Source: Candidatus Omnitrophota bacterium
Lineage (GTDB): Bacteria > Omnitrophota > Gorgyraeia > Duberdicusellales > Duberdicusellaceae
Direction of reading: 5' to 3'
DNA: 64,000 nt
Assembly (NCBI GenBank): GCA_021163425.1
Contig: JAGGWS010000072.1
Location: 6,582-70,581, forward strand
Shown: positions 5,967 through 64,000 of the stretch, in pieces
How positions within the stretch are numbered: the first letter of the stretch is position 1
How the letters are laid out: every line of letters begins with the position of its first letter
Translations under genes and position numbers: made by a program
Notes under the pieces: generated by a model
The model's input: the letters and a program-made list of their open reading frames with translations, nothing else
Databases searched by the model: none
What the model was told of the DNA's origin: nothing

Positions 5967-6750
5967 AGAAGAGAAAAAGTTTATTTTAATTGCTGGGCCT
6001 TGTGTAATAGAAGAGGAAAGGTTAACTTTTAAGATTGCCCAGCAACTTAAAGAGATTACAGCTGATTTTCCTTTACATTTTATATTCAAAGCCAGTTTTG
6101 ATAAAGCTAATAGAACAAGACTTAATTCTTTTCGTGGTCCAGGTTTAGAAAAAGGGCTAACTATTCTTAAAAAGATAAAAGATAAGCTAAAGATACCAGT
6201 GTTAAGCGATGTGCATTGTGTCACTCAAATAAAATTAGCAGAGAAAGTTTTAGATGTTATTCAGATACCTGCTTTTCTTTGTCGGCAGACAGACCTTGTC
6301 TTAGAAGCTGCTCGCACTAAGAAAACCATAAATATTAAAAAAGGACAATTTCTTTCTCCCTATGATGTAAAGTATATAATAGAGAAAGTTGAGTCTACTC
6401 ATAATAAAAACATTTTGCTTACTGAAAGGGGGACTTTTTTTGGCTACAATAATTTAGTAGTTGATTTCCGTTCTTTTGGTATTTTGAAGTCTTTTGGGTA
6501 TCCGGTAATATTTGATGTTACTCATTCTTTACAACGTCCTTCAGCTAATCGGGGAGTTTCTGGTGGAGAAAGAAAGTTTGTAGTGCCTTTAGGAAGAGCA
6601 GCAGTGTCTTTTGGGGTTGATGGTATTTTTTGTGAAGTTCATCCTCAACCTCAAAAAGCTTTATCTGATAAATATACTTCTATTAATTTTAAAACATTAG
6701 AAAAACTTCTTAAAGATATTTTTAGAATAAGAAAGGTTATCCGTGAGTAA
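5947..6750 (+). CDS. kdsA: 2-dehydro-3-deoxyphosphooctonate aldolase (KDO-8-P synthase)
   Basis: ILIAGPCVIE...KASFDKANRT are DAHP/KDO8P synthase family motifs; length is 267 aa. It overlaps the kdsB end. Confidence 0.85.
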   Translation: MRKVMPKEEKKFILIAGPCVIEEERLTFKIAQQLKEITADFPLHFIFKASFDKANRTRLNSFRGPGLEKGLTILKKIKDKLKIPVLSDVHCVTQIKLAEKVLDVIQIPAFLCRQTDLVLEAARTKKTINIKKGQFLSPYDVKYIIEKVESTHNKNILLTERGTFFGYNNLVVDFRSFGILKSFGYPVIFDVTHSLQRPSANRGVSGGERKFVVPLGRAAVSFGVDGIFCEVHPQPQKALSDKYTSINFKTLEKLLKDIFRIRKVIRE

Positions 6751-7723
6751 TAAAGACAAGAAGATAATAGACTGGGCAAAAGAGGTTCTTAAAATTGAGG
6801 TTGAAGCTATCTTAGGTATTTTAGAAAGATTAAATAAAGAGTTTATCAAGGCTATAGAAATTCTTAAGTCCTGTAAAGGAAAAGTTGTAGCTACGGGGAT
6901 GGGTAAAGCCGGGATAATTGCTCAAAAGTTTTCTGCTACTCTTTCTTCAACAGGGACTACTTCTATCTGGCTGCATCCTGCTGAAGCAGTTCACGGAGAT
7001 TTAGGAAGGGTGTTGAAGGAAGATATAGTAGTTATTTTTTCTTATAGTGGAGAGACTGAAGAGATAAAGGGGCTTTTGCCTTTTCTCAAAAAAATTGGCT
7101 CAAAGATAATCTCTTTTACCGGCAATAAAAATTCCTGTTTAGCTCAATATTCGGATGTAACCTTAGATGTTAAGGTAGAGAGGGAGGCTTGTCCTTTAGG
7201 GCTTGCTCCCACTACTTCTACCACTGTAATGTTGGCTTTGGCTGATAGTGTAGCTGTGGTTCTTCAAAGGTTAAAAGGATTTAAGGAGAAAGACTTTGCT
7301 TTTTTTCATCCCAAAGGGAGTTTAGGGAGAAAGCTTTTGTTAAGAGTGGAAGACTGTATGCGTAAAGGAAGAGAGAATCCTTTAGTGAGAGAGGATACCC
7401 CTGTTTCTAAAGTTTTAGTAGCCATTACTCAGGCCAGAGCTGGAGCAGCTGTAGTTATAGATAAAAATAAAAAAGTTTTAGGAATTTTTACTGATGGTGA
7501 TTTGAGAAGGCATTTAGAAGAAGACCCTAACCTTCCCAAGAGAAAGATTCACGAAGTAATGACTAAGACTCCGGTAGTAGTCAGTAAGGATATTTTGGCT
7601 ACTGAAGCTATGAGGATTATGGAGGAGAAAAAGATTGATGAAGTTCCAGTGGTAGATAAAAAAGGGAGAGTCGTAGGGTTGTTAGATGTTCAGGATTTAC
7701 TGAGAGCAGGCATAGTTTTATAA
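6743..7723 (+). CDS. kdsD: Arabinose-5-phosphate isomerase (SIS domain + tandem CBS)
   Basis: The SIS motif GMGKAGIIAQKFSATLSSTGT is followed by two CBS domains (VMTKTPVVVSKD.., VPVVDKKGRVVG). Confidence 0.85.
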   Translation: MSNKDKKIIDWAKEVLKIEVEAILGILERLNKEFIKAIEILKSCKGKVVATGMGKAGIIAQKFSATLSSTGTTSIWLHPAEAVHGDLGRVLKEDIVVIFSYSGETEEIKGLLPFLKKIGSKIISFTGNKNSCLAQYSDVTLDVKVEREACPLGLAPTTSTTVMLALADSVAVVLQRLKGFKEKDFAFFHPKGSLGRKLLLRVEDCMRKGRENPLVREDTPVSKVLVAITQARAGAAVVIDKNKKVLGIFTDGDLRRHLEEDPNLPKRKIHEVMTKTPVVVSKDILATEAMRIMEEKKIDEVPVVDKKGRVVGLLDVQDLLRAGIVL

Positions 7724-51125: not shown

Positions 51126-52442
51126 ATGTCAGGAGTAGCTAAACAGAAGACGATTAGAAAAGAAGTTAGTTTAGAAGGAGTAGGCCTCCATACCGGTAAA
51201 AATGTTAAGTTAAAATTTTTACCAGCTCCTCCTAATAGTGGGATATTGTTTTTTAGAGAAGATGCTTCTTCTTTAATAAAGGCAGATTTATATTCTGTTC
51301 TTTCCCCGGAAAGTTTTCCCCGCCGAACTTCTATTGGTAGAGATGGCGTATATGTTCATACTGTCGAGCACCTTATGGCCGCTCTCTCTATATTGGGAAT
51401 AGATAATATCCAGATAAATATAACTGGAGAAGAAGTTCCGGGAATGGATGGCAGTGCCAAAGATTTTATAGAAAACATAAAAAAGGCAGGAATAGTTGAA
51501 CAGCCTGCCCCTAAAGATTATTTAGTAATAAGAGAACCTATCTGGGTAGATGAAGGAAATTCCGGCTTAGTAATTCTTCCTTATCCCGAGTTCAGGATTT
51601 CTTATACTTTAGATTACAATAATCCTGTTATCTCTACAGATTTTCTGGATGTAGTTTTGAACTCTGAGGATATAGATTCTTTAGCAATTGCCAGAACCTT
51701 TTGTCTGGAGGAAGAAGTTACTCCTCTTTTAAATATGGGTTTAGGTAAAGGCGCTAATTATTCTAATACTTTGGTAGTTTCTAAAAAGGGGATATTGGAG
51801 AATAAGTTGAGAGATGAGGGAGAATTCGTAAAACACAAAGTTTTAGATTTAATTGGAGATTTATACTTAGCGGGTCCTCTTAAAGGCCATGTTATTGCTT
51901 TCCGTAGTGGGCACCTGTTAAATATAAAACTACTGACAAAACTGCGGGCTTACAAAGAAAAAGTTACATCTTCAGGAGTAGGAGCAGTGAGTGCCTTTAT
52001 CCCTTCTCAAGATACCTTAAATGCTTCAGAAATTATGAAGATTCTTCCTCACCGTTATCCTTTTCTCCTGGTGGATAAGATTGTTTATTTAGAGAAAGGT
52101 AAAAAAGCAATAGGGATTAAGAACGTTACTATAAATGATTACTTTTTTCAGGGTCATTTTCCTGACCGGCCGATTATGCCCGGGGTTTTGATTATCGAAG
52201 TTATGGCTCAGGTGGGAGGAGTATTAATGCTTTCTCCCCAAGAGAATAGAGGAAAACTCGCTTATTTTATGGCTGCTGATAATATAAAATTTAGGAGAAC
52301 GGTTGAACCGGGAGACCAGTTAGTTATAGAGGTTACTGTAGGAAAAGTAAAGAGTAAGACTGGCCAGGTTCACACTAAAGCTTTTGTAGATAATAAGGTT
52401 GTTGCTGAAGCAGATTTAATGTTTGCTTTAGTCAACCGATAA
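51126..52442 (+). CDS. lpxC-fabZ: Fused UDP-3-O-acyl-GlcNAc deacetylase (LpxC) / 3-hydroxyacyl-ACP dehydratase (FabZ)
   Basis: The N-terminal ~280 aa are QKTIRKEVSLEGVGLHTGK...HTVEHLMAAL (LpxC). The C-terminal ~150 aa are LPHRYPFLLVDKIV...GHFP..PIMPGVLIIEVMAQ (FabZ). Confidence 0.85.
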   Translation: MSGVAKQKTIRKEVSLEGVGLHTGKNVKLKFLPAPPNSGILFFREDASSLIKADLYSVLSPESFPRRTSIGRDGVYVHTVEHLMAALSILGIDNIQINITGEEVPGMDGSAKDFIENIKKAGIVEQPAPKDYLVIREPIWVDEGNSGLVILPYPEFRISYTLDYNNPVISTDFLDVVLNSEDIDSLAIARTFCLEEEVTPLLNMGLGKGANYSNTLVVSKKGILENKLRDEGEFVKHKVLDLIGDLYLAGPLKGHVIAFRSGHLLNIKLLTKLRAYKEKVTSSGVGAVSAFIPSQDTLNASEIMKILPHRYPFLLVDKIVYLEKGKKAIGIKNVTINDYFFQGHFPDRPIMPGVLIIEVMAQVGGVLMLSPQENRGKLAYFMAADNIKFRRTVEPGDQLVIEVTVGKVKSKTGQVHTKAFVDNKVVAEADLMFALVNR

Positions 52443-54082: not shown

Positions 54083-54113
54083 ATTATTTAAATTTTTATT
54101 TCCTTTCTTCCTT

Positions 54114-54187
54114 GCCCCGGTAGCTCAATTGGATAGAGCTTCTGGCTTCGAACCAGAAGGTTGCGGGTTCAAATCCTGCCCGGGGCA
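54114..54187 (+). tRNA. tRNA-Arg (anticodon UCG)
   Basis: I folded a 74-nt cloverleaf by hand. The acceptor is GCCCCGG/CCGGGGC, then U8, D-arm GCTC-AATTGGATA-GAGC, anticodon arm TCTGG-CTTCGAA-CCAGA, and T-arm GCGGG-TTCAAAT-CCTGC. The discriminator is A. Confidence 0.8.
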
Positions 54188-54266
54188 ATGTAACAAAAAT
54201 TGTTTGAATTAAACCCAAATTTTGCGTTAGGAAGTCTTTACAATTTCCTTGTCCTTGAAAAAGTGC

Positions 54267-54295
54267 TTGACAAAAGCCTGTTTTTAACCTAAACT
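54267..54295 (+). promoter_or_regulatory. Sigma70-like promoter TTGACA-17-TAAACT of the pyr operon
   Basis: A consensus -35 TTGACA at 54267-72, a 17-nt spacer, and -10 TAAACT at 54290-95. It sits directly upstream of the PyrR-binding leader. Confidence 0.5.
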
Positions 54296-54310
54296 AAGAG
54301 CAACCTTTAA

Positions 54311-54401
54311 TCTGGTCCAGAGAGGCCAGAAAGGAATTAAGATGAACTTAAACCAGCCTATTAGTCAGGAGTTACCCACCTAAAAAGGTGGGATTTTTTT
54401 T
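54311..54401 (+). promoter_or_regulatory. PyrR-dependent transcription attenuator: PyrR binding loop plus intrinsic terminator
   Basis: The conserved PyrR box GGTCCAGAGAGGCC is at 54314-27, inside the stem CTGG/CCAG. The hairpin CCCACC-taaaaa-GGTGGG (54375-92) is followed by T8 and lies 9 nt before the pyrR ATG. Confidence 0.7.
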
Positions 54402-54409
54402 GTTTAGTT

Positions 54410-54958
54410 ATGGTTTACAGAGAAAAATCTAAGATATTAGGAGAAAAAGAAATAGAGAAGATAATTAAAAGACTCACTCACCAAATTTTAGAGAAGAATC
54501 TTTGTTTAGAGGAAGTTTGTCTGGTGGGAATTCAGAGGAGAGGAGTTTTTTTAGCCGGAAGAATAAAAAGGTTAATCTTAGAGATAGAGGGTAAAGAGCT
54601 TCCTTTAGGGGCAATTGACATAACTTTGTATAGAGACGACCTTACAGCTATCGGTCCTGTTCCCCAGGTGGGAAAAACCGAGATTAATTTTGATATAAAT
54701 AACAAGGTAGTAATCTTAGTAGACGATGTTTTATTTACTGGAAGAACTGTAAGGTCTGCCTTAGATGAAGTAATAGATTTTGGCCGACCCAAGAGGATTG
54801 AGTTAGTAGTTTTAATTGATAGAGGCCATAGGGAATTCCCGATAAGAGCAGACTTTGTAGGGAAAAATATCCCCACTTCTAGCTCAGAGATAGTGGAAGT
54901 AAGACTTAAAGAATTAGATGGTAAAGATGAGGTAGTAATATTAGAAGAAGACGCTTAA
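54410..54958 (+). CDS. pyrR: Pyrimidine operon attenuation protein / uracil phosphoribosyltransferase
   Basis: [22 protein letters not shown]...[18 protein letters not shown] is a PRT-type protein; length is 182 aa. Confidence 0.85.
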
Positions 54959-54959
54959 A

Positions 54960-55901
54960 ATGGGAGAGTGGCAGAGAAAGCACCTATTAGGTCTCAAAGA
55001 TTTAACCCGAGAAGAAATAGAAGTTATTTTAAATTCAGCCCAGGCTTTTAAGGAAATTTCAGAAAGAGAAGTCAAAAAAGTTCCTGCTTTAAGAGGGAAA
55101 ACTGTAGTTAACCTCTTTTTTGAACCTTCCACCCGTACTAAGACTTCTTTTGAGTTAGCTGCTAAAAGACTCAGTGCTGATGTAGTAAATTTTTCTTCTT
55201 CGGGAAGTAGCCTTGTTAAGGGAGAGACTATCTTAGATACTCTTAAAAATATTGAGGCTTATTCTGTAGACATCTTTGTAATCAGACACAGTGTTTCGGG
55301 AGTAGTTTTTTATCTTTCTCAGAGGACAACTTCTTCAGTGGTAAATGCTGGTGACGGTCAGAACGAACACCCTACCCAGGCTCTCTTAGATATGTTTACA
55401 GTGAGAGAAAAATTAGGTAGTTTAGAGAATTTAAAGGTGGCTATAATTGGAGATATTTATCATTCTCGGGTGGCTCGTTCTAATATCTGGGGTTTTAGTA
55501 AGTTTTCTTCCTCAGTCTATGTTTGTGCTCCTAAGACCCTTATTCCTAAATACTTTGATAATTTACCCTGTAAAATCACCTATTCTTTAAAAACTGCTTT
55601 AGACCAGGCTCAGGTAGTGATTATGCTCAGGATTCAAAAGGAGAGAATGAAGGAAAGGTTTTTCTCTTCGCAAAGAGAGTATGTAAAGTATTATTCTTTG
55701 AACGAAGAAAATTTAAAATTTTTACCTCCCCAAGCTTTAGTTTTACATCCTGCTCCGATAAACTGGGATATTGAGATAGCTTCTTCTTTAAAAGAGAAAG
55801 TTTCTCCTTTAATTTTAGAGCAGGTAAATAACGGTTTAGCCGTAAGGATGGCGGTCCTATATCTTTTGGCTGAGAAGAAAAGTTATGAAGTTGTTGATTA
55901 A
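54960..55901 (+). CDS. pyrB: Aspartate carbamoyltransferase catalytic subunit
   Basis: HLLGLKDLTREEIE...FFEPSTRTKTSFELAAKRL...HPAP. Confidence 0.9.
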   Translation: MGEWQRKHLLGLKDLTREEIEVILNSAQAFKEISEREVKKVPALRGKTVVNLFFEPSTRTKTSFELAAKRLSADVVNFSSSGSSLVKGETILDTLKNIEAYSVDIFVIRHSVSGVVFYLSQRTTSSVVNAGDGQNEHPTQALLDMFTVREKLGSLENLKVAIIGDIYHSRVARSNIWGFSKFSSSVYVCAPKTLIPKYFDNLPCKITYSLKTALDQAQVVIMLRIQKERMKERFFSSQREYVKYYSLNEENLKFLPPQALVLHPAPINWDIEIASSLKEKVSPLILEQVNNGLAVRMAVLYLLAEKKSYEVVD

Positions 55902-57162
55902 AGAAGGTACAATAGTTAACCCTGATTCTCAGAAAAAGGCTGATGTCCTTATAGAGAGTTCCAGAATATCCCGGATAGCAGATGCTATTCCTGAGAAGGA
56001 GGCTGATAAAGTAATTTCAGCAAAAGATAAGTTTGTCTTTGCGGGTTTCATTGATATGCATACTCATTTAAGGACACCAGGTAGAGAAGACGAAGAAGAT
56101 TTACTTTCAGGAAGCCTGGCTTCAGCCCGGGGTGGCTTTACTACTCTTCTTTGTATGCCTAATACTAATCCAGCCATCGATAATTATGAGATAGCCTTAA
56201 GAATAAGGAAAGAAGCTGAAAAAATTGGTTTAGTAGATATATATCCTGTAGGAGCAATTACTAAAAACAGAGAGGGAAAAGAGATTTCAGAATTTGGGTT
56301 TTTAGCTGAAGCGGGATGTTTAGCTGTGAGTGATGACGGTTTTCCTCTTAAAGAGTCTTCTCTCTTGAGGAGAGCTTTAGAGTATGCAGAAAACTTTAAT
56401 CTTTTGGTAATCTCTCATTGTGAAGATTTGTCTTTATCTGGAGAAGGATTAATCCGGGAATCTCCTCTTTCTGCAGAGTGGGGGATTCCTTCAGTGCCAG
56501 AGATTTCTGAAATTGTAGATTTAGTCCGGCAGATAGAAGTGGTAAGATATTTAAATTCTCGAGTCCACTTTGCTCATATAAGTAGTAAGCGTTCAGTTGA
56601 GCTCATAAAGAGAGCAAAAGAAGAAGGAATAAACATTACTGCTGAGACCTGTCCGCATTATTTTACCTTCAGTTTAAAGGATGTAGAAGAGAGTGGCTTT
56701 TCTCCTTTATATAAGGTAAATCCACCTTTAGGAAGAGAAGAAGATAAATTAGCTTTAAAGAAAGCCTTAAAAGAAGGGATAATTGACGTAATAGCTACTG
56801 ACCACGCCCCTCACACTTATTTAGAAAAAGAAATAGACTTTAACTCAGCAGAATTTGGGATGATTGGTTTAGAATTTGCTTTGCCTTTGAGCTTGAGTTT
56901 GGTAAGAGAAGGTTTTCTGAGTTTAGAAGATTTAGCCTGCAGGCTTTCTTATAGGCCAGCACAGATTTTGAATTTAAAAGACAGAGGTTATATTAAAGAA
57001 GGGTTGCGGGCAGACTTAACTATAGTGGATACAGAAAGAGAACAGTTAATAACCAAGGAGAATATTTTTTCTAAATCCAAAAATACTCCTCTCTTAGGTA
57101 AAGTCTTAAAAGGAGAGGTCGTTTATACTATATATAAAGGTAAGATAGTTTACTCATCTTAA
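55885..57162 (+). CDS. pyrC: Dihydroorotase
   Basis: GFIDMHTHLRTPGRED...ATDHAPH are amidohydrolase metal ligands. Confidence 0.9.
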   Translation: MKLLIKEGTIVNPDSQKKADVLIESSRISRIADAIPEKEADKVISAKDKFVFAGFIDMHTHLRTPGREDEEDLLSGSLASARGGFTTLLCMPNTNPAIDNYEIALRIRKEAEKIGLVDIYPVGAITKNREGKEISEFGFLAEAGCLAVSDDGFPLKESSLLRRALEYAENFNLLVISHCEDLSLSGEGLIRESPLSAEWGIPSVPEISEIVDLVRQIEVVRYLNSRVHFAHISSKRSVELIKRAKEEGINITAETCPHYFTFSLKDVEESGFSPLYKVNPPLGREEDKLALKKALKEGIIDVIATDHAPHTYLEKEIDFNSAEFGMIGLEFALPLSLSLVREGFLSLEDLACRLSYRPAQILNLKDRGYIKEGLRADLTIVDTEREQLITKENIFSKSKNTPLLGKVLKGEVVYTIYKGKIVYSS

Positions 57163-57163
57163 G

Positions 57164-57631
57164 ATGAGATTTATTCTTACTAAAGAGCTGGGAAGACTTT
57201 CTCGCTGGTTGAGGGTTTTGGGTTTTGATACGGTTTATTTTAAAGAAGAAAATTATTCTAAATTGCTTCTTTTAGCTTTAAGAGAAGAAAGGATAATTAT
57301 TACTCGCAATAAGACTTTAGCTGAAAGAGTAACTACCAAAGCAGTATATTTAAAAGAAGAGAATTTACCAGAGCAGTTAAAAAAAGTTATTAAGAGACTT
57401 AATTTAAAGATAGAGGAGGATAAGATGTTTTCCCGCTGTGTTATCTGTAATAAAAGTTTAGAGAAGGTAGGGAAAGAAAAAGTAAGAGAAAGAGTTCCTG
57501 AATATATCTACAAGACTCAACAAGGTTTTAGGGAGTGTCCTCAATGTAAAAGGGTTTACTGGCCGGGTTCTCACTGGCAGAATATAAGAGAAGCTTTAAA
57601 TAAAACCGGGTTAAATGAAGTTTGTAGCTGA
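57164..57631 (+). CDS. Mut7-C (PF01927) PIN-like RNase domain protein with C-terminal zinc ribbon
   Basis: MRFILTKELGRLSRWLRVLGFDTVY is the Mut7-C N-terminal signature. The C-terminus is CVICNKSL...CPQCKRVYWPGSHW. Confidence 0.7.
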   Translation: MRFILTKELGRLSRWLRVLGFDTVYFKEENYSKLLLLALREERIIITRNKTLAERVTTKAVYLKEENLPEQLKKVIKRLNLKIEEDKMFSRCVICNKSLEKVGKEKVRERVPEYIYKTQQGFRECPQCKRVYWPGSHWQNIREALNKTGLNEVCS

Positions 57632-58844
57632 TTTGCACATTCATTCTAAATATTCTCGGGCTACCTCCCGGGATATGGAAGTGCCTAAATTAGTTCAGTG
57701 GGCTAAACTTAAAGGAATAACTCTTTTAGGTACCGGTGATTTTACTCATCACCTTTGGCTGGAGGAGTTAAAAAGGTATCTGACTCCTTTAAAAGATAAA
57801 GGTTTATTTATTTATGAAGGAGTCTACTTTATATTATCAGGAGAAATATCCAGCATTTTCTCTCAGAAGGGGAGAGTTTACCGGGTTCATAACCTGGTAT
57901 TAAGCCCTTCTTTTTCTATAGTTGAAGAGATAAATAAACTTCTTTCTTTCTACGGAAACTTGGCTTCTGATGGAAGGCCAATCTTAGGGATAAGCTGTGA
58001 GAAGTTAGCAGAAGAGTTATCTAAAATATCTGAGGATATTATGCTGATACCTGCTCATATCTGGACTCCCTGGTTTAGTGTATTCGGTTCCAATTCTGGC
58101 TTTAACTCTTTAGAGGAGGCATTTGGGAAGTATATAGGGAGGATAACCGCTTTGGAGACAGGGCTTTCTTCCAACCCCCTAATGAACTGGAGATTATCTA
58201 AATTAGATAAATTTTCTTTAGTCTCTAACTCTGATTCTCACTCTCCTTCCCGGATTGGTCGAGAAGCTAATGTCTTTGATTGCGAGTTAAATTACTGGGA
58301 GATTAAAAAAGTTTTAGAAACAAAAGATAAAGAAAAGTTCTTATATACTATAGAATTCTTCCCTGAAGAAGGAAAATACCACTATGATGGCCACAGAAAC
58401 TGTGGGATAAGGTTCCACCCTAAGGAAACTAAGATTCATAAAGGTATTTGTCCTAAGTGTGGTAAGCCTTTAACCCGGGGAGTACTCAATAGAGTAGAAG
58501 AATTAGCCGATAGAGAAGAAGGGTTTATTCCTCCTTCGGCTATTCCTTATAAGAGCCTTGTTCCTTTAGATGAGATTATTGCTGAAGCTAAAGGGTTAAG
58601 AAAAGGAGCGAAAGAAGTAGAAAGAACCTATTTAGAGCTGGTAAATAGTTTCGGTTCAGAACTTAATATCTTAGTGGAGTTAACTGAAGAAGAATTATTT
58701 TCTAAACTTCCTCCAAAGATTGCTGAGGGGATTGAGAGAATAAGAAAGGGGAGTTTAAATATTTTGCCGGGGTTTGATGGTGAGTATGGGCAGATAAAAA
58801 TATTTGACCAACACCAAGAAAAAGACCAGCTCACCCTATTTTGA
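57615..58844 (+). CDS. Endonuclease Q (EndoQ)-like PHP-domain / zinc-finger nuclease
   Basis: FVADLHIHSKYSRATS, GTGDFTH, PAHIWTPW, NSDSHSPSRIGREANVF, the zinc finger CPKCGKPLTRG, and a C-terminal LPGFDGEYGQIKIF. The architecture and length (409 aa) match archaeal EndoQ. It overlaps the Mut7-C gene by 17 nt. Confidence 0.65.
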   Translation: MKFVADLHIHSKYSRATSRDMEVPKLVQWAKLKGITLLGTGDFTHHLWLEELKRYLTPLKDKGLFIYEGVYFILSGEISSIFSQKGRVYRVHNLVLSPSFSIVEEINKLLSFYGNLASDGRPILGISCEKLAEELSKISEDIMLIPAHIWTPWFSVFGSNSGFNSLEEAFGKYIGRITALETGLSSNPLMNWRLSKLDKFSLVSNSDSHSPSRIGREANVFDCELNYWEIKKVLETKDKEKFLYTIEFFPEEGKYHYDGHRNCGIRFHPKETKIHKGICPKCGKPLTRGVLNRVEELADREEGFIPPSAIPYKSLVPLDEIIAEAKGLRKGAKEVERTYLELVNSFGSELNILVELTEEELFSKLPPKIAEGIERIRKGSLNILPGFDGEYGQIKIFDQHQEKDQLTLF

Positions 58845-59344
58845 AAGGAGAAGTTATGAAAGTAGCTTTGATATTTTATTCTTTTTCTGGCAATACCCAA
58901 AGGGTTTTTGAATATTTAAAAGAGGTTCTCTTATCTCGAGGTTGTAGTCTGGGATTTTTGCGATTAAAGCCAGAAAATGAGCCTAAGAGTTTTTTTAAAC
59001 AGGGCTTTTCTGCTTTTACTAAGGAGAAACCTAAATTAAAAGGAGAAGTTTTTTATGACCTGAAAGATTTTGATTATATAATCCTGGGAACGCCTCTATG
59101 GGCTTTTACCTTTTCCCCAGCTTTAAGGAGTTATTTAGAAAAGGTTAAAAATCTTAAAAATAAAAGAGTAAGTTTTCTTTTTACCTATGGCTCAGGAGCA
59201 GGATTAAGTAAAGCTATCCGGGAATTAAAGAGTATTTTAGAAGAAAAATCTGCTCAAATAAAAAGTTTTGCCAGCTTAGAAGGTAAAAAGGTTAAAGAGA
59301 GAAGCTATTTAGAGGAGAAACTAAAAGATTTTTTGCGCCTGTAG
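58841..59344 (+). CDS. Flavodoxin-like fold protein
   Basis: KVALIFYSFSGNTQRV is the flavodoxin T/S-x-T-G-x-T loop. The likely start is the Met at 58856. The last 10 nt, including the TAG stop, overlap tRNA-Arg(CCG). Confidence 0.55.
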   Translation: MKGEVMKVALIFYSFSGNTQRVFEYLKEVLLSRGCSLGFLRLKPENEPKSFFKQGFSAFTKEKPKLKGEVFYDLKDFDYIILGTPLWAFTFSPALRSYLEKVKNLKNKRVSFLFTYGSGAGLSKAIRELKSILEEKSAQIKSFASLEGKKVKERSYLEEKLKDFLRL

Positions 59345-59407
59345 CTCAAGTGGATAGAGCACAGGCCTCCGGAGCCTGGTGTGGCAGTTCGATTCTGCCC
59401 AGGCGCA
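59335..59407 (+). tRNA. tRNA-Arg (anticodon CCG)
   Basis: I folded a 73-nt cloverleaf by hand. The acceptor is GCGCCTG/CAGGCGC, then D-arm GCTC-AAGTGGATA-GAGC, anticodon arm CAGGC-CTCCGGA-GCCTG with G37, and T-arm GGCAG-TTCGATT-CTGCC. The discriminator is A. Confidence 0.8.
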
Positions 59408-59419
59408 TAAGTAAGCCTT

Positions 59420-59866
59420 ATGAATATTGGAGTAATTGGAGGATATAAGTGTTCTAAGAAGAGTTATCAGCTTGCCTATAATTTAGGCCGGCTTATAGCT
59501 AAAGAGGGCTGGGTGGTAATTTGTGGCGGAGGACTAGGGGTTATGGAAGCTGTTTGTAAGGGAGCGAAAGAAGAAGGAGGCTTAACCTGTGGGATATTAC
59601 CCAGTTATACTGGAGAAGAAGCCAACTCTTATTTAGATATAAAGCTTCCTACGGGTTTAGGATATGCCCGCAATATTTTAATAATAAGGACCTCAGATGT
59701 TTTGATAGCTGTGGATGGTAAATACGGGACTTTATCAGAAATTGCCTTTGCTTTAAATGAGGGAAAACCAGTTTTAGGGATAGATACCTGGGATATAAAG
59801 GGAATAATAAAGGTTAAAGATCCTCAAGAAGCCATAAGAAAAATAAAACATCTAAGATTGATATGA
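59420..59866 (+). CDS. TIGR00725-family SLOG/LOG-like Rossmann protein
   Basis: IGVIGGYKCSKKSYQLAYNLGRLIAKEGWVVICGGGLGVMEAV...DVLIAVDGKYGTLSEI matches the LOG/TIGR00725 pattern; length is 148 aa. Confidence 0.6.
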   Translation: MNIGVIGGYKCSKKSYQLAYNLGRLIAKEGWVVICGGGLGVMEAVCKGAKEEGGLTCGILPSYTGEEANSYLDIKLPTGLGYARNILIIRTSDVLIAVDGKYGTLSEIAFALNEGKPVLGIDTWDIKGIIKVKDPQEAIRKIKHLRLI

Positions 59867-60999
59867 AGAAGGCTTGTTTATTATTAGAAGACGGCTTTTA
59901 TCAGGAAGGTTTACCCTTAGGGGCTGAAGGCGAAGTTATTGGCGAAGTAGTTTTTAATACTTCAATGACTGGTTATCAGGAGATTTTAACTGACCCTTCT
60001 TATAAGGGGCAAATTGTTTGTATGACTTATCCTTTAATAGGAAACTACGGAATAAATTCTCAGGATGTAGAATCTTCTCAAATTCAGGTTGAGGGGTTTA
60101 TTATAAAAGAAAAGAGTAAAATTTACTCTAACTGGCGGGCAGAAAAATCCTTAGAAGAATATTTAAGAGAAAATAATATTGTAGGTATTGAGGGCGTAGA
60201 TACCCGGGCAATAACTAAACACTTAAGAGTAAAAGGCTCTATGAAAGGAATAATTTCTACAACCGATTTTAACTCAGAAAGCCTGAAAGAAAAGTTAGAA
60301 AAATTTCCCTCGATAGTAGGTAGAGACCTGGTAAAGAAAGTCTTTAGCAACCAAATTTACGAATGGGAGCAACCCTTAATTTCTGAATTTAATCCCTTAA
60401 TTTCTCCTCAGGGCAAAGTCGTAGTTATAGATTGCGGAGTTAAATTTAGTATATTGAGAAACCTTAAAGTTTATTTTGAGAAAGTAATAGTTATCCCTCC
60501 CACAACTTCTTTAGAGGAAATCTTAGAGTTTGAGCCTCAAGGTATATTATTTTCTGGTGGTCCGGGAGATCCTACCGCTGTTGAATATGTTATAGAGTTA
60601 GCCAAAAAAATAATAGAGAAGTTGGAGAAGAGAGAATTGAGAATAGGAGTTTTAGGGATATCCTTGGGTCATCAGATTCTTGGTTTGGCTTTAGGAGGTA
60701 AGATTTATAAGTTAAAATTTGGCCATCACGGAGGAAGTTATCCGGTAAAGGATTTAGAGACGGCTAAGATTGAGATGACTGTCCAGAACCATCATTTTTG
60801 TGTAGATATAAAGAGTTTACCTACAGATTTAGAGCCAACTTACATAAATCTCTACGATGATACTCTGGAGGGGATGGCTCATAAGAGATTGCCTATATTC
60901 AGTGTCCAGTTTCATCCCCGGACAGAGTTAGGACCTTTTGAGGCTACAGGTATATTTAGTAAGTTTAAAAGAATGATAGAGCTAACTACTTCCTTTTAA
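59863..60999 (+). CDS. carA: Carbamoyl-phosphate synthase small (glutaminase) subunit
   Basis: [13 protein letters not shown]...[18 protein letters not shown] at the N-terminus and the GATase domain GISLGHQIL...HH. Confidence 0.9.
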
Positions 61000-61024: not shown

Positions 61025-64000
61025 ATGCCTAAAAGGACAGATATTGAGAAAATTTTAATCATTGGTTCAGGTCCGATAATTATAGGTCAGGCTTGCGAAT
61101 TTGACTATTCAGGCACTCAGGCCTGCAAAGCCTTAAAAGAAGAGGATTATTTTACGATTCTGGTGAATTCCAATCCGGCTACAATTATGACTGACCCCGA
61201 GATGGCCAGGGTAACCTATATAGAGCCTTTAACTGTGGAGGTATTGACTAAAATAATTGAAAAAGAAAGACCCCAGGCAATCCTTCCCACTTTAGGAGGA
61301 CAGACTGCTCTTAATTTAGCCTATTTCTTAATGAAGGAAGGAGTCTTAGAAAGGTATAATGTAGAATCAATAGGAGCCCCTGTAGAGGCAATCGCTCGGG
61401 CAGAAGATAGAGAGTTATTTAAAAAGTCAATGCAGGAGATTGGGTTAGAAGTTCCTAAGAGTAGTATTGCCACAACTTTCCAAGAAGGTTTAAAAATTGC
61501 TGGAAGTATTGGTTTCCCTGTTATTTTAAGGCCGGGTTATTGTCTGGGTGGCTACGGAGGTTCTGTGGCTTATAATAGAGAGGAGTTAGAATTCCTCTTG
61601 GCCAAAGCCTTAGAGGCCAGTCCAGTTCATCAGGTGTTGATAGAGGAGTCTGTTTTGGGCTGGAAGGAGATTGAGTTTGAAGTAATAAGAGATAGTAAAG
61701 ATAATGTTATAGTGGTGACTTCTATGGAAAATGTTGATCCTATGGGGGTGCATACCGGTGATAGTATTGTAGTTGCTCCTTCCCAGACTTTGACAGCTAG
61801 AGAATATACAACTTTTGTAGAACTTTCCAAAAGAATAATAAGGAAGATTGGGGTAAATGGTGGTGCAAATATTCAGTTTGCTCAAAATCCTTATAATGGA
61901 AGGATTGTGGTTATTGAGGTCAATCCCAGACTTTCCAGGAGTTCAGCTTTAGCTTCTAAAGCCACAGGCTATCCTATAGCCAGGATTGCTACCAAACTGG
62001 CAGTGGGCTATACTTTAGAGGAGATTCCCAATGATATAACCAAAGAGACTCCGGCTTGTTTTGAACCAACTATAGATTACTGTGTGGTGAAAATTCCTCG
62101 CTGGGCCTTTGAGAAGTTTCCTCAGGCTGAGGCCACTCTCACTACTTCTATGAAATCAGTAGGAGAGGTTATGGCTATTGGTCGAACTTTTAAGGAGGCT
62201 CTTCAGAAGGGATTAAGGGGTTTAGAAATTGGGAAGGCAGGTTTAGAATCGGTTATTGATGAGAGAAGATATAAAGTCCACTCCCAGGAAGTAGAGGCAG
62301 AAGTTAAAGCTAAACTCCTTACTCCTAATCCTCAGAGAGTCTTTTATATTGGTGATGCTTTTAGGTTGGGTTTTTCCGTAGAAGAGGTTTACCAACTTAC
62401 TAAGATAGACAGATGGTTTTTAAGTAATATAAAAGAGATAATTGACTTTGAGAATTCTCTTAAACTCTATCGGGGTTTAGACCCCCGCACTTTAAAGAAG
62501 GCTAAAGAATTGGGCTTTTCTGATATTCAGACTGCCAAGTTATTAAATATAAATCCTGCTAAGATTTCTTCTTTTCGGGAGAAGCACTCAATTTCTCCTG
62601 TGTATAAATTTGTAGATACCTGTGCTGGAGAATTTCAAGCTTATACTCCTTATTATTATTCTACTTATGAATACGAAGAAGAAGTTTTCTCTGAGGAAAA
62701 GAAGAAAGTGATTATTTTAGGTGGAGGCCCTAATCGGATTGGTCAAGGGATAGAGTTTGACTACTGTTGTGTTCATGCCTGTTTTGCTTTGAAAGAGGAA
62801 AGCATAGAGTCAATTATGGTAAACTGTAACCCTGAGACAGTTTCTACTGATTACGATACTTCGGACAAACTCTATTTTGAGCCGATAACTTTGGAAGATG
62901 TTTTAAATATTGTAAGAAAGGAAAACCCTTTAGGAGTAATCCTTCAATTTGGAGGCCAGACTCCTCTTAATTTAGCTCTGGGTTTGGAAAGGGCTGGAGT
63001 GAATATTTTGGGAACAAAAGCAAGTTTTATAGATACGGCTGAAGATAGAGAAAAGTTTAAAAAACTCCTCCATAGGTTGGGACTTAAACAGGCGCCTTCA
63101 GGAATAGCCTATTCTTTTTATGAGGCTAAGAAGATTGCTAAGGAATTAGGTTTTCCAGTAATGGTCAGACCTTCTTATGTTTTAGGAGGAAGAGCCATGG
63201 AGATAGTCTATGATGAGGAGGTTTTGGAGAGATTTGTAAGAGAAGCGCTTTTAGCTTCTCCTAATCAACCTATTCTTATTGATAAATTTTTAGAAGATGC
63301 TATTGAGATAGATGTAGATATGATTGGTGATGGAGTAAATTTTGTTATTGGCGGTATTTTAGAGCATATTGAGGAAGCAGGTGTTCACTCCGGAGATTCA
63401 GCAATGTGTCTACCTCCTTATAGTCTGCCTGATTCGATGATAGAAGAAATAAGAAAGGCTACTTATTCCTTGGCTAAGGAGTTGAAAATAGTAGGCCTTA
63501 TGAATATCCAGTATGCAGTAAAAAATGAAGAACTTTTTGTCCTGGAAGTAAACCCTCGGGCTTCAAGGACTATCCCTTTTGTTTCTAAAGCTATAGGAGT
63601 GCCTTTAGCTAAACTGGCTACTAAGGTAATGTTGGGTAGAAGCTTAAAAGATTTAGGTTTTACTGAAGAAGTCATTCCAGCTTATACCTGCGTTAAAGAA
63701 TCAGTCTTTCCTTTTAACCGATTTGCCGGCATAGACATAATATTGGGCCCGGAGATGAAATCTACCGGAGAAGTAATGGGCATAGATGAGAGTTTTGCTA
63801 AGGCTTATCTTAAAAGTCAAATTTCAGCTGGACAATTTCTTCCCAAAAAGGGGAAAGTATTTATCAGCGTGAAGAATAGTGATAAGAGGTCAATTGTTTT
63901 TATTGCCAAGGGGTTAAGGGACTTAGGTTTTGAGATTTTAGCTACTGAAGGCACAGGAAAGGTTTTAAAGAGTAATGGCATTCCTTGTTTAGTTTTACCA
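61025..64000 (+). CDS. carB: Carbamoyl-phosphate synthase large subunit, 5' ~990 codons; continues past window end
   Basis: The ATG at 61025 gives [33 protein letters not shown]. The frame is open to the window end, so it is absent from the complete-ORF track. Two ATP-grasp repeats are visible. Confidence 0.9.

Follow-up and report, generated by a model that had tools for sequence, protein, structure and literature searches.

A probable vertically inherited pyrimidine super-operon carrying endonuclease Q, tRNA-Arg(CCG) and TIGR00725 genes in one clade of Candidatus Omnitrophota

Introduction

A 64,000-nt stretch of a Candidatus Omnitrophota genome (assembly GCA_021163425.1, contig JAGGWS010000072.1, positions 6,582 to 70,581 of the forward strand; hereafter the window) carries a pyrimidine biosynthesis (pyr) gene array in which five elements stand between pyrC and carA. 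The order on the + strand is pyrR, pyrB, pyrC, a Mut7-C gene, an endonuclease Q (EndoQ) gene, a flavodoxin-like gene, tRNA-Arg(CCG), a TIGR00725/SLOG gene, carA and carB. An initial annotation, made from the sequence alone, described the five elements as a nuclease-rich insert of foreign-looking cargo that splits a conserved operon. The locus raises the question of whether the block was acquired as a unit or belongs to the operon itself. All five elements were recovered on the + strand at the extents first described with the open reading frame (ORF) listing, ARAGORN, Pfam and NCBIfam, and Mut7-C and EndoQ overlapped by exactly 17 nt (57615-57631).

Overall, the locus is likely a vertically inherited pyrimidine 'super-operon' of one Candidatus Omnitrophota clade, in which housekeeping genes have stood among the pyr genes for a long time. 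Every component is from a known family and nothing in it is categorically new.

Gene order among related loci

Related loci (L numbers) were gathered with three anchors, namely EndoQ in GTDB species representatives, Mut7-C and TIGR00725. For the EndoQ anchor, at least 593 stretches in GTDB species-representative genomes encoded relatives and 80 loci were kept. The window proteins and tRNAs were then mapped onto all collected loci. EndoQ was next after pyrC in 23 of the 24 non-redundant loci showing pyrC, with Mut7-C in between in 12 of those 23. The remaining locus (L094) ran from pyrC straight to tRNA-Arg(CCG) and then to TIGR00725 without EndoQ. A direct pyrC-carA junction was present in none of the 24 loci. 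The pyrC-carA-carB order that had been taken as canonical and interrupted was seen nowhere in this clade.

The exact window order including carA-carB was repeated in L095, L097, L099, L100 and L105 (pyrC identity 44-90%), and L091 showed the same order minus the flavodoxin-like gene. In more than 20 related loci, tRNA-Arg(CCG) occupied the same slot, with TIGR00725 next and either EndoQ or the flavodoxin-like gene just ahead of it. Overall, the arrangement was found across 41-90% pyrC identity. EndoQ, the tRNA and TIGR00725 were near-constant among the relatives while Mut7-C and the flavodoxin-like gene were variable, the latter being present in approximately two thirds of the related loci. 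The block therefore did not behave as one unit as initially described. Farther downstream on the same strand, the relatives carried carB with or without carA, dCTP deaminase (dcd), YjbQ, Fpg and pyrK-pyrD-pyrF. The carA gene was missing from the operon in many relatives; in L006, L007, L013, L043, L110 and L124, carB followed TIGR00725 (or the tRNA) and no carA was present in the operon.

A neighbour-joining tree showed that the pyr-embedded EndoQs formed one clade. Mut7-C was present in deep branches of the EndoQ tree (L090, L014, L110 and L105) as well as in the subclade of the window, and a decayed Mut7-C remnant was found in L007. Because of this distribution, the absence of Mut7-C elsewhere in the clade is best read as loss. 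The same arrangement in relatives, which the initial annotation had associated with an old and stable housekeeping arrangement, was found across this clade. Its alternative of housekeeping genes co-located by chance held for the housekeeping part only, as the linkage was stably conserved.

Two further observations were made on these loci. In L006, a Fic/RhuM-domain gene (6263-7243) was inserted between pyrR and pyrB, which shows that the pyr array of the clade tolerates occasional genuine insertions. In addition, L011 ('Methanosarcinales archaeon') and L015 ('Planctomycetia bacterium') carried an Omnitrophota-type pyrR-pyrB-pyrC-EndoQ order with EndoQ identity of 57-71%, and these contigs were probably mis-binned.

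Composition, selection and the island reading

The GC content was flat across the block. The dN/dS values against the closest relative were 0.10-0.18 for the four protein-coding genes of the block and 0.05-0.17 for pyrB, pyrC and carA with similar dS, hence the block genes are under purifying selection. No integrase or recombinase ORF was found at the block in the window ORF listing, and a repeat search produced short purine-rich repeats only, with no flanking direct or att-like repeats. Both results agreed with the initial annotation, which had noted that no integrase or direct repeats were visible.

These data bear on the reading of the block as an island gained by horizontal transfer, or as a module for defence or conflict, that integrated at the tRNA gene. 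Such a module could account for the tRNA within the block, the variable presence of Mut7-C and the flavodoxin-like gene, and a SLOG domain of the kind found in some defence proteins. However, the variable genes were located 5' of tRNA-Arg(CCG) and not 3' of it, the GC content was unshifted, dS was similar to that of the flanks, and the arrangement was monophyletic over the whole range of pyrC identity. PADLOC found no complete system; the TIGR00725 protein matched PsyrA and ShosA weakly and partially, over 60 residues, and the other three proteins had no match. Outside the clade, neither Mut7-C (by HMM) nor TIGR00725 (by tblastn with the window protein) was beside EndoQ in the remaining loci of the 80 kept, the closest case being L019 with TIGR00725 located 2.7 kb downstream. 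The island or defence reading is accordingly regarded as very improbable. Integration at the tRNA was rejected on the lack of integrase and repeats, the flat GC content, the position of the variable genes and the clade-wide order, and a defence system was rejected because the PADLOC domain matches were only partial. The proposed link to conflict and nucleotide-signalling systems was thus reduced to partial SLOG-domain similarity, and the term foreign-looking did not suit genes in an old, clade-wide arrangement with the GC content, dN/dS and dS of the flanking pyr genes.

PyrR leader and expression of the array

The leader of the array showed a PyrR-binding hairpin, CTGGTCCAGAGAGGCCAG, followed by a terminator, CCCACCTAAAAAGGTGGG, and a run of eight T. 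The PyrR loop TCCAGAGAGGC was located at 54316-54326 inside a CTGG...CCAG hairpin, the terminator hairpin at 54375-54392 and the hairpin together with the eight-T run at 54375-54400. Between 53500 and 64000, no attenuator-like element was found except the one just 5' of pyrR, and only there was a strong terminator present. Alignment of the leaders of about ten relatives showed that the binding hairpin (as TCCnGTGAGG variants) and the terminator were conserved, and a -35 TTGACA with a TATAnT-like -10 aligned in the leaders of 9 of 11 relatives. When the relatives were searched for the exact PyrR loop motif, most gave no match, since the motif varies as TCCnGTGAGG. An Rfam search of three relatives identified a PyrR site in L093 alone, as a sub-threshold RF00515 match; the leader of L006 was masked by Ns.

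The junctions from pyrC to carB measured, in order, +1, -17, +11, -11, +11, -4 and +25 nt, all on one strand. With no intergenic space between the genes, the simplest model would be that the array is transcribed as one unit subject to PyrR attenuation. Read-through from the pyr promoter, as suggested in the initial annotation, is plausible given the conserved promoter, PyrR site and terminator and the lack of internal gaps.

Alternatively, these could be independent housekeeping genes with their own promoters, the order of which reflects low rearrangement in small, gene-dense genomes. The upstream synteny gyrA-glmS-rsmI-like-pyrR was also kept in several relatives, which indicates that gene order is generally stable in this lineage, and Mut7-C, the flavodoxin-like gene, carA, carB and dcd come and go as independent genes might. 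However, the junctions (-17 to +25 nt) are too short to hold promoters or terminators between genes, no attenuator or strong terminator was found other than those upstream of pyrR, and the pyrC-EndoQ-tRNA-TIGR00725 core persisted despite differing surroundings (lpx genes upstream in the window, glmS in others and the Fic insertion in L006). Independent expression is therefore considered unlikely.

Several points weigh against a super-operon under PyrR control. The RF00515 match reached 45.6 bits where 54 is the gathering score. Scans for promoters and terminators overall were no better than chance. A promoter-like site was found inside the flavodoxin-like gene (59055-59082) and internal promoters within coding regions may exist. 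A tRNA would be an unusual gene to subject to PyrR attenuation if the genome has no other tRNA-Arg(CCG). In addition, Omnitrophota with more distant EndoQs (L072 and L088) did not have the arrangement, hence it marks the clade but not the phylum as a whole. Finally, as the anchors were EndoQ, Mut7-C and TIGR00725 and not pyrC, the share of the clade with an EndoQ-less pyrC, of which L094 is one case, is a lower bound.

Endonuclease Q homologue

The EndoQ homologue of the window aligned over its full length with the Pyrococcus furiosus enzyme PfuEndoQ (5zb8, residues 5-398, E 4e-62). The PHP metal ligands of PfuEndoQ, backed by mutagenesis, are H8, H10, E76, H84, H139 and D193 (PMC5961232). The corresponding ligands H8, H10, E77, H92, H148 and D207 were kept in the window protein, together with H209. 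The lesion pocket was also kept at T151, E181, G183, L184 and N205 (Pfu T142, E167, G169, L170 and N191), with one change from Pfu L168 to T182 at a position that touches the base via the main chain. The Zn-binding site was formed by H260, C263, C279 and C282. For the C-terminal helical domain, the 5zb8 alignment ran on to residue 398 and PF27218 (MJ0043_C) was recorded on an identical protein.

The window protein scored below the curated TIGR00375 cutoff (189.7 vs 326.6 bits), a model which appears to be tuned to archaeal members. Close homologues are named 'endonuclease Q family protein' by NCBI, and EndoQ identity across Omnitrophota was 69-94% in the best 120 protein clusters. The protein is thus a genuine homologue of this repair endonuclease and its active site is intact, as the EndoQ-like label of the initial annotation had suggested, and it would be expected to retain cleavage activity. 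Compared with Endonuclease Q of known structure or function (PfuEndoQ 5zb8 and 7k30; Bacillus pumilus EndoQ), it shared the three-domain layout, the six PHP ligands with His209 and the Zn site. Unlike PfuEndoQ, it is bacterial, has His and not Cys as the first Zn ligand, scores below TIGR00375 and is located in a PyrR-controlled pyr operon.

Bacterial EndoQ has been described as limited to a few groups (PMC5961232). The at least 593 stretches with EndoQ relatives came from Omnitrophota, Patescibacteria, Aminicenantes, WOR-3, Planctomycetota, Desulfobacterota, Chloroflexota and DPANN archaea, which shows a wide presence in uncultured bacteria compared to the archaeal enzyme with few bacterial members of the literature. 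In this Omnitrophota clade, EndoQ is strongly conserved (approximately 70-94% identity) and is apparently a core housekeeping gene. The EndoQs of other phyla and of the distant Omnitrophota L072 and L088 were not beside pyr genes, Mut7-C or TIGR00725.

In L091 (8541-11018), an 825-aa EndoQ carried an intein right after a metal-ligand His equivalent to window His148 (VPAH/C...HN/CWTPWF), an insertion point of the kind typical for important catalytic sites, and gyrA on the same contig also carried an intein. In six CPR/Patescibacteria loci (L021, L023, L024, L025, L030 and L066), PolX shared the strand of EndoQ at a distance of 1.2-5 kb. In L021, tRNA-Arg(CCG) was located 27 nt upstream of EndoQ.

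Mut7-C protein and its pairing with EndoQ

The Mut7-C protein of the window consisted of a Rossmann-like N-terminal domain and a C4 zinc ribbon in which C92, C95, C125 and C128 were invariant. According to Matelska 2017, the acidic residue after strand S1 is the sole active-site residue conserved across PF01927. At this site the window protein had Thr6 (FILTKELG) where the canonical motif is FxADxMLG, with a conserved Glu two residues past the Asp-to-Thr site, and it had 'TRN' where the canonical form is 'TRD'. The loss of Asp, with Thr and Asn at the two sites, was common to approximately 60 related Omnitrophota clusters. The only strong structural match was the C-terminal domain (CTD) of Caenorhabditis elegans MUT-7 (8q66). 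No PIN nuclease ranked over generic Rossmann-like folds in the structural comparison, and the three or four acidic metal ligands of a PIN fold were not found in the window protein. The MUT-7 CTD structure showed RNA binding and a TOPRIM-like fold without significant similarity to PIN domains; the domain was shown to bind RNA and protein, and no nuclease activity was assigned to it (Busetto et al.). Because the conserved Asp is lost and the MUT-7 CTD binds RNA without PIN similarity, the window protein is probably a zinc-ribbon nucleic-acid-binding accessory and not a second nuclease. 'PIN-like RNase' is therefore a family name without a demonstrated activity, and to call the block nuclease-rich was an overstatement.

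Mut7-C was immediately upstream of EndoQ in 15 of 16 Mut7-C loci. The sixteenth locus, L092 (3588-7722), showed a compact order of EndoQ, Endonuclease V, PolX (with a PHP domain) and a Mut7-C with the canonical Asp, the last two genes overlapping by 16 nt. This context matches the Haloferax neighbourhood, in which Mut7-C is downstream of PolX (Matelska et al.). The L092 operon may itself represent a complete repair cassette for deaminated bases. A neighbourhood check proposed earlier thus showed that the Mut7-C/EndoQ pair is conserved, and the lack of co-occurrence of Mut7-C with EndoQ or TIGR00725 that had been named as counter-evidence to a functional module was not observed. The 15 of 16 adjacency and the L092 operon suggest that Mut7-C is a repair accessory. 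The pairing was lineage-restricted: searches of the 80 EndoQ loci for Mut7-C (by HMM) and TIGR00725 (by tblastn with the window protein) found them beside EndoQ in the Omnitrophota clade only, and a general association of EndoQ with Mut7-C or TIGR00725 that spans different phyla was rejected.

The same adjacency could be explained by a dedicated repair module in which the nick made by EndoQ on the 5' side of the lesion is followed by Mut7-C, an active PIN/FEN-like nuclease here, which strips the lesion-bearing 5' end. The L092 operon with its PolX/Mut7-C overlap, the Haloferax context and the 17-nt overlap in the window, which suggests translational coupling, are all consistent with this. However, an active nuclease is difficult to reconcile with the Thr and Asn at the two canonical Asp sites in the window protein and its related clusters, with a sole strong structural match to an RNA- and protein-binding domain, with the lack of any PIN nuclease ranked over generic Rossmann-like folds, and with the repeated losses of Mut7-C while EndoQ was retained. 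The overlap was also not general, as a 19-nt gap separated the two genes in L006. A second active nuclease is accordingly judged improbable.

With Mut7-C read as a non-nuclease accessory, a further and rather speculative possibility is that bacterial EndoQ has in the Asp-less 'TKE' Mut7-C a partner of its own without catalytic function, and that placing EndoQ (in relatives together with dcd and fpg) behind the PyrR attenuator ties uracil excision to pyrimidine supply. If true, binding of nucleic acid, transfer of the lesion or recruitment of factors might be the task of the partner, and canonical Mut7-C would serve PolX, EndoV and EndoQ likewise. This would be a first function for prokaryotic Mut7-C, in an alternative excision repair of deaminated bases. 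Compared with the MUT7-C of MUT-7 (8q66) and the archaeal PolX-adjacent Mut7-C, the window form is minimal and stand-alone, with Thr for the strand-1 Asp and 'TRN' for 'TRD', and its partner is EndoQ where that of other Mut7-C is PolX or an exonuclease domain.

Flavodoxin-like gene, tRNA-Arg(CCG) and TIGR00725 protein

The flavodoxin-like ORF opens with a TTG at 58841, and on identical metagenome contigs the gene was called from the ATG at 58856. Its 3' end overlapped the 5' end of tRNA-Arg(CCG) by 11 nt (59334-59344), so that three sense codons and the stop codon were located inside the tRNA. Because the stop codon is inside the tRNA, cleavage of tRNA-Arg(CCG) by RNase P would take it off the flavodoxin-like mRNA. 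The flavodoxin/tRNA overlap was shared with L106 and L090 and was absent in L006.

The closest solved structures to the TIGR00725 protein (148 aa) were 6y01 (E 3e-25) and 2iz5 (E 9e-22), followed by LOG phosphoribohydrolases. The structure 6y01 is the molybdenum-cofactor (Moco) carrier protein of the cyanobacterium Rippkaea orientalis (PMC7470044). The window protein shared the GGGxGxME and GxGTxxE motifs with LOG enzymes; its DGKYGTLSE and ARN aligned with the LOG motifs (PGGxGTxxE and Arg), and the same motifs are kept in Moco carriers. Its TIGR00730 score of 55.7 was below the cutoff of 96. Since the protein carries the GxGTxxE and Arg motifs common to this group, ligand binding and hydrolysis are both possible for it. 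It resembles the Moco carriers (6y01 and Chlamydomonas 2iz5) and LOG in keeping GGGxGxME and GxGTxxE, and differs from them in being shorter and in its position after a tRNA in a pyr operon, near dcd in the relatives. No Moco genes were seen near the TIGR00725 gene of the window, and literature searches for TIGR00725, PF18306 and SLOG cluster 4 gave nothing specific.

TIGR00725 was the steadiest companion of the pyr genes and remained with the tRNA even where EndoQ was absent (L094). In L127 (7620-8540) and L115 (296-1177), distant TIGR00725 genes (51-53% identity) were found between tRNA-Pro(CGG) and tRNA-Arg(CCT) on the same strand, hence TIGR00725 is beside a tRNA-Arg in a second, unrelated context.

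Window features and flanking genes

The features of the array are as in Table 1. Directly 5' of it is an lpxD, lpxC-fabZ, lpxA and lpxI cluster, in which LpxC and FabZ were fused in one 438-aa ORF (51126-52442). A tRNA-Arg(TCG) was located at 54113-54188, between the lpx cluster and the pyr promoter. On identical JGI and ENA metagenome contigs, carB was followed by YjbQ, Fpg, a 624-aa protein and a pyrK-like gene.

Table 1. Features of the pyr array, given in positions of the window
Feature	Position	Strand	Evidence
Promoter-like site TTGACA-17-TAAACT	54267..54295	+	10/12 matches
PyrR-binding attenuator	54300..54403	+	Rfam RF00515, 45.6 bits, E 7.8e-4, below gathering score 54
pyrR	54410..54958	+	NF003549, 239 bits vs cutoff 138
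pyrB	54960..55901	+	NF002032, 396 bits
pyrC (dihydroorotase)	55885..57162	+	TIGR00857, 411 bits
Mut7-C protein, Asp-less 'TKE' subfamily	57164..57631	+	PF01927, E 1.4e-47, 161.9 bits vs gathering 23.3
EndoQ homologue (PHP, Zn-binding and C-terminal helical domains)	57615..58844	+	5zb8, E 4e-62
Flavodoxin-like/FMN-reductase-like (FMN_red) protein	58856..59344	+	PF03358, E 9.5e-10
tRNA-Arg(CCG)	59334..59408	+	ARAGORN; Rfam tRNA 63.7 bits
TIGR00725/SLOG cluster-4 protein (MCP/LOG-like)	59420..59866	+	TIGR00725 144.4 bits vs 106.9; PF18306 E 9e-49, 165 bits vs 26.3
carA	59863..60999	+	TIGR01368, 448 bits; 4-nt overlap with TIGR00725 gene
carB	61025..64000, runs past window end	+	1076 aa in full on identical contigs L002 and L003

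Discussion

The Bacillus-type pyr operon (RF00515) has pyrR first, then pyrB, pyrC, carA and carB with pyrK-pyrD-pyrF further downstream, and a 5' leader with a UCCAGAGAGG-type PyrR-binding hairpin and an intrinsic terminator. The Omnitrophota array shares this gene order and leader. Unlike the Bacillus type, a single attenuator was found in the window array, the Mut7-C, EndoQ, flavodoxin-like, tRNA and TIGR00725 genes are interleaved, with dcd, YjbQ and Fpg in relatives, and many operons of the relatives are without carA.

In the proposed super-operon, one promoter and PyrR-binding attenuator would drive the genes from pyrR to carA-carB, with YjbQ, Fpg and pyrK next on the identical contigs. 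EndoQ would act as an endonuclease specific for lesions, with nicks placed on the 5' side of uracil, hypoxanthine and AP sites in DNA, and Mut7-C would be its Asp-less zinc-ribbon nucleic-acid-binding companion and not a nuclease. RNase P and RNase Z would excise the tRNA from the polycistronic transcript, and the small MCP/LOG-like protein TIGR00725 would bind or process a phospho-ligand. A thematic link from pyrimidine and dUTP metabolism (the pyr genes, and dcd in relatives) to uracil repair by EndoQ is plausible.

The locus also gives a caution, in that an annotation of 'Mut7-C RNase' or 'SLOG' is poor evidence for a conflict system. The stable presence of EndoQ within a PyrR-controlled pyr operon, with dcd and fpg alongside in relatives, represents an unreported operon variant and hints at a tie between pyrimidine/dUTP metabolism and uracil repair. 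The recurrence of Mut7-C beside EndoQ, EndoV and PolX gives a testable lead on what Mut7-C does in prokaryotes. Of most use is the possibility that prokaryotic Mut7-C proteins may be accessories of an EndoQ/EndoV/PolX repair route.

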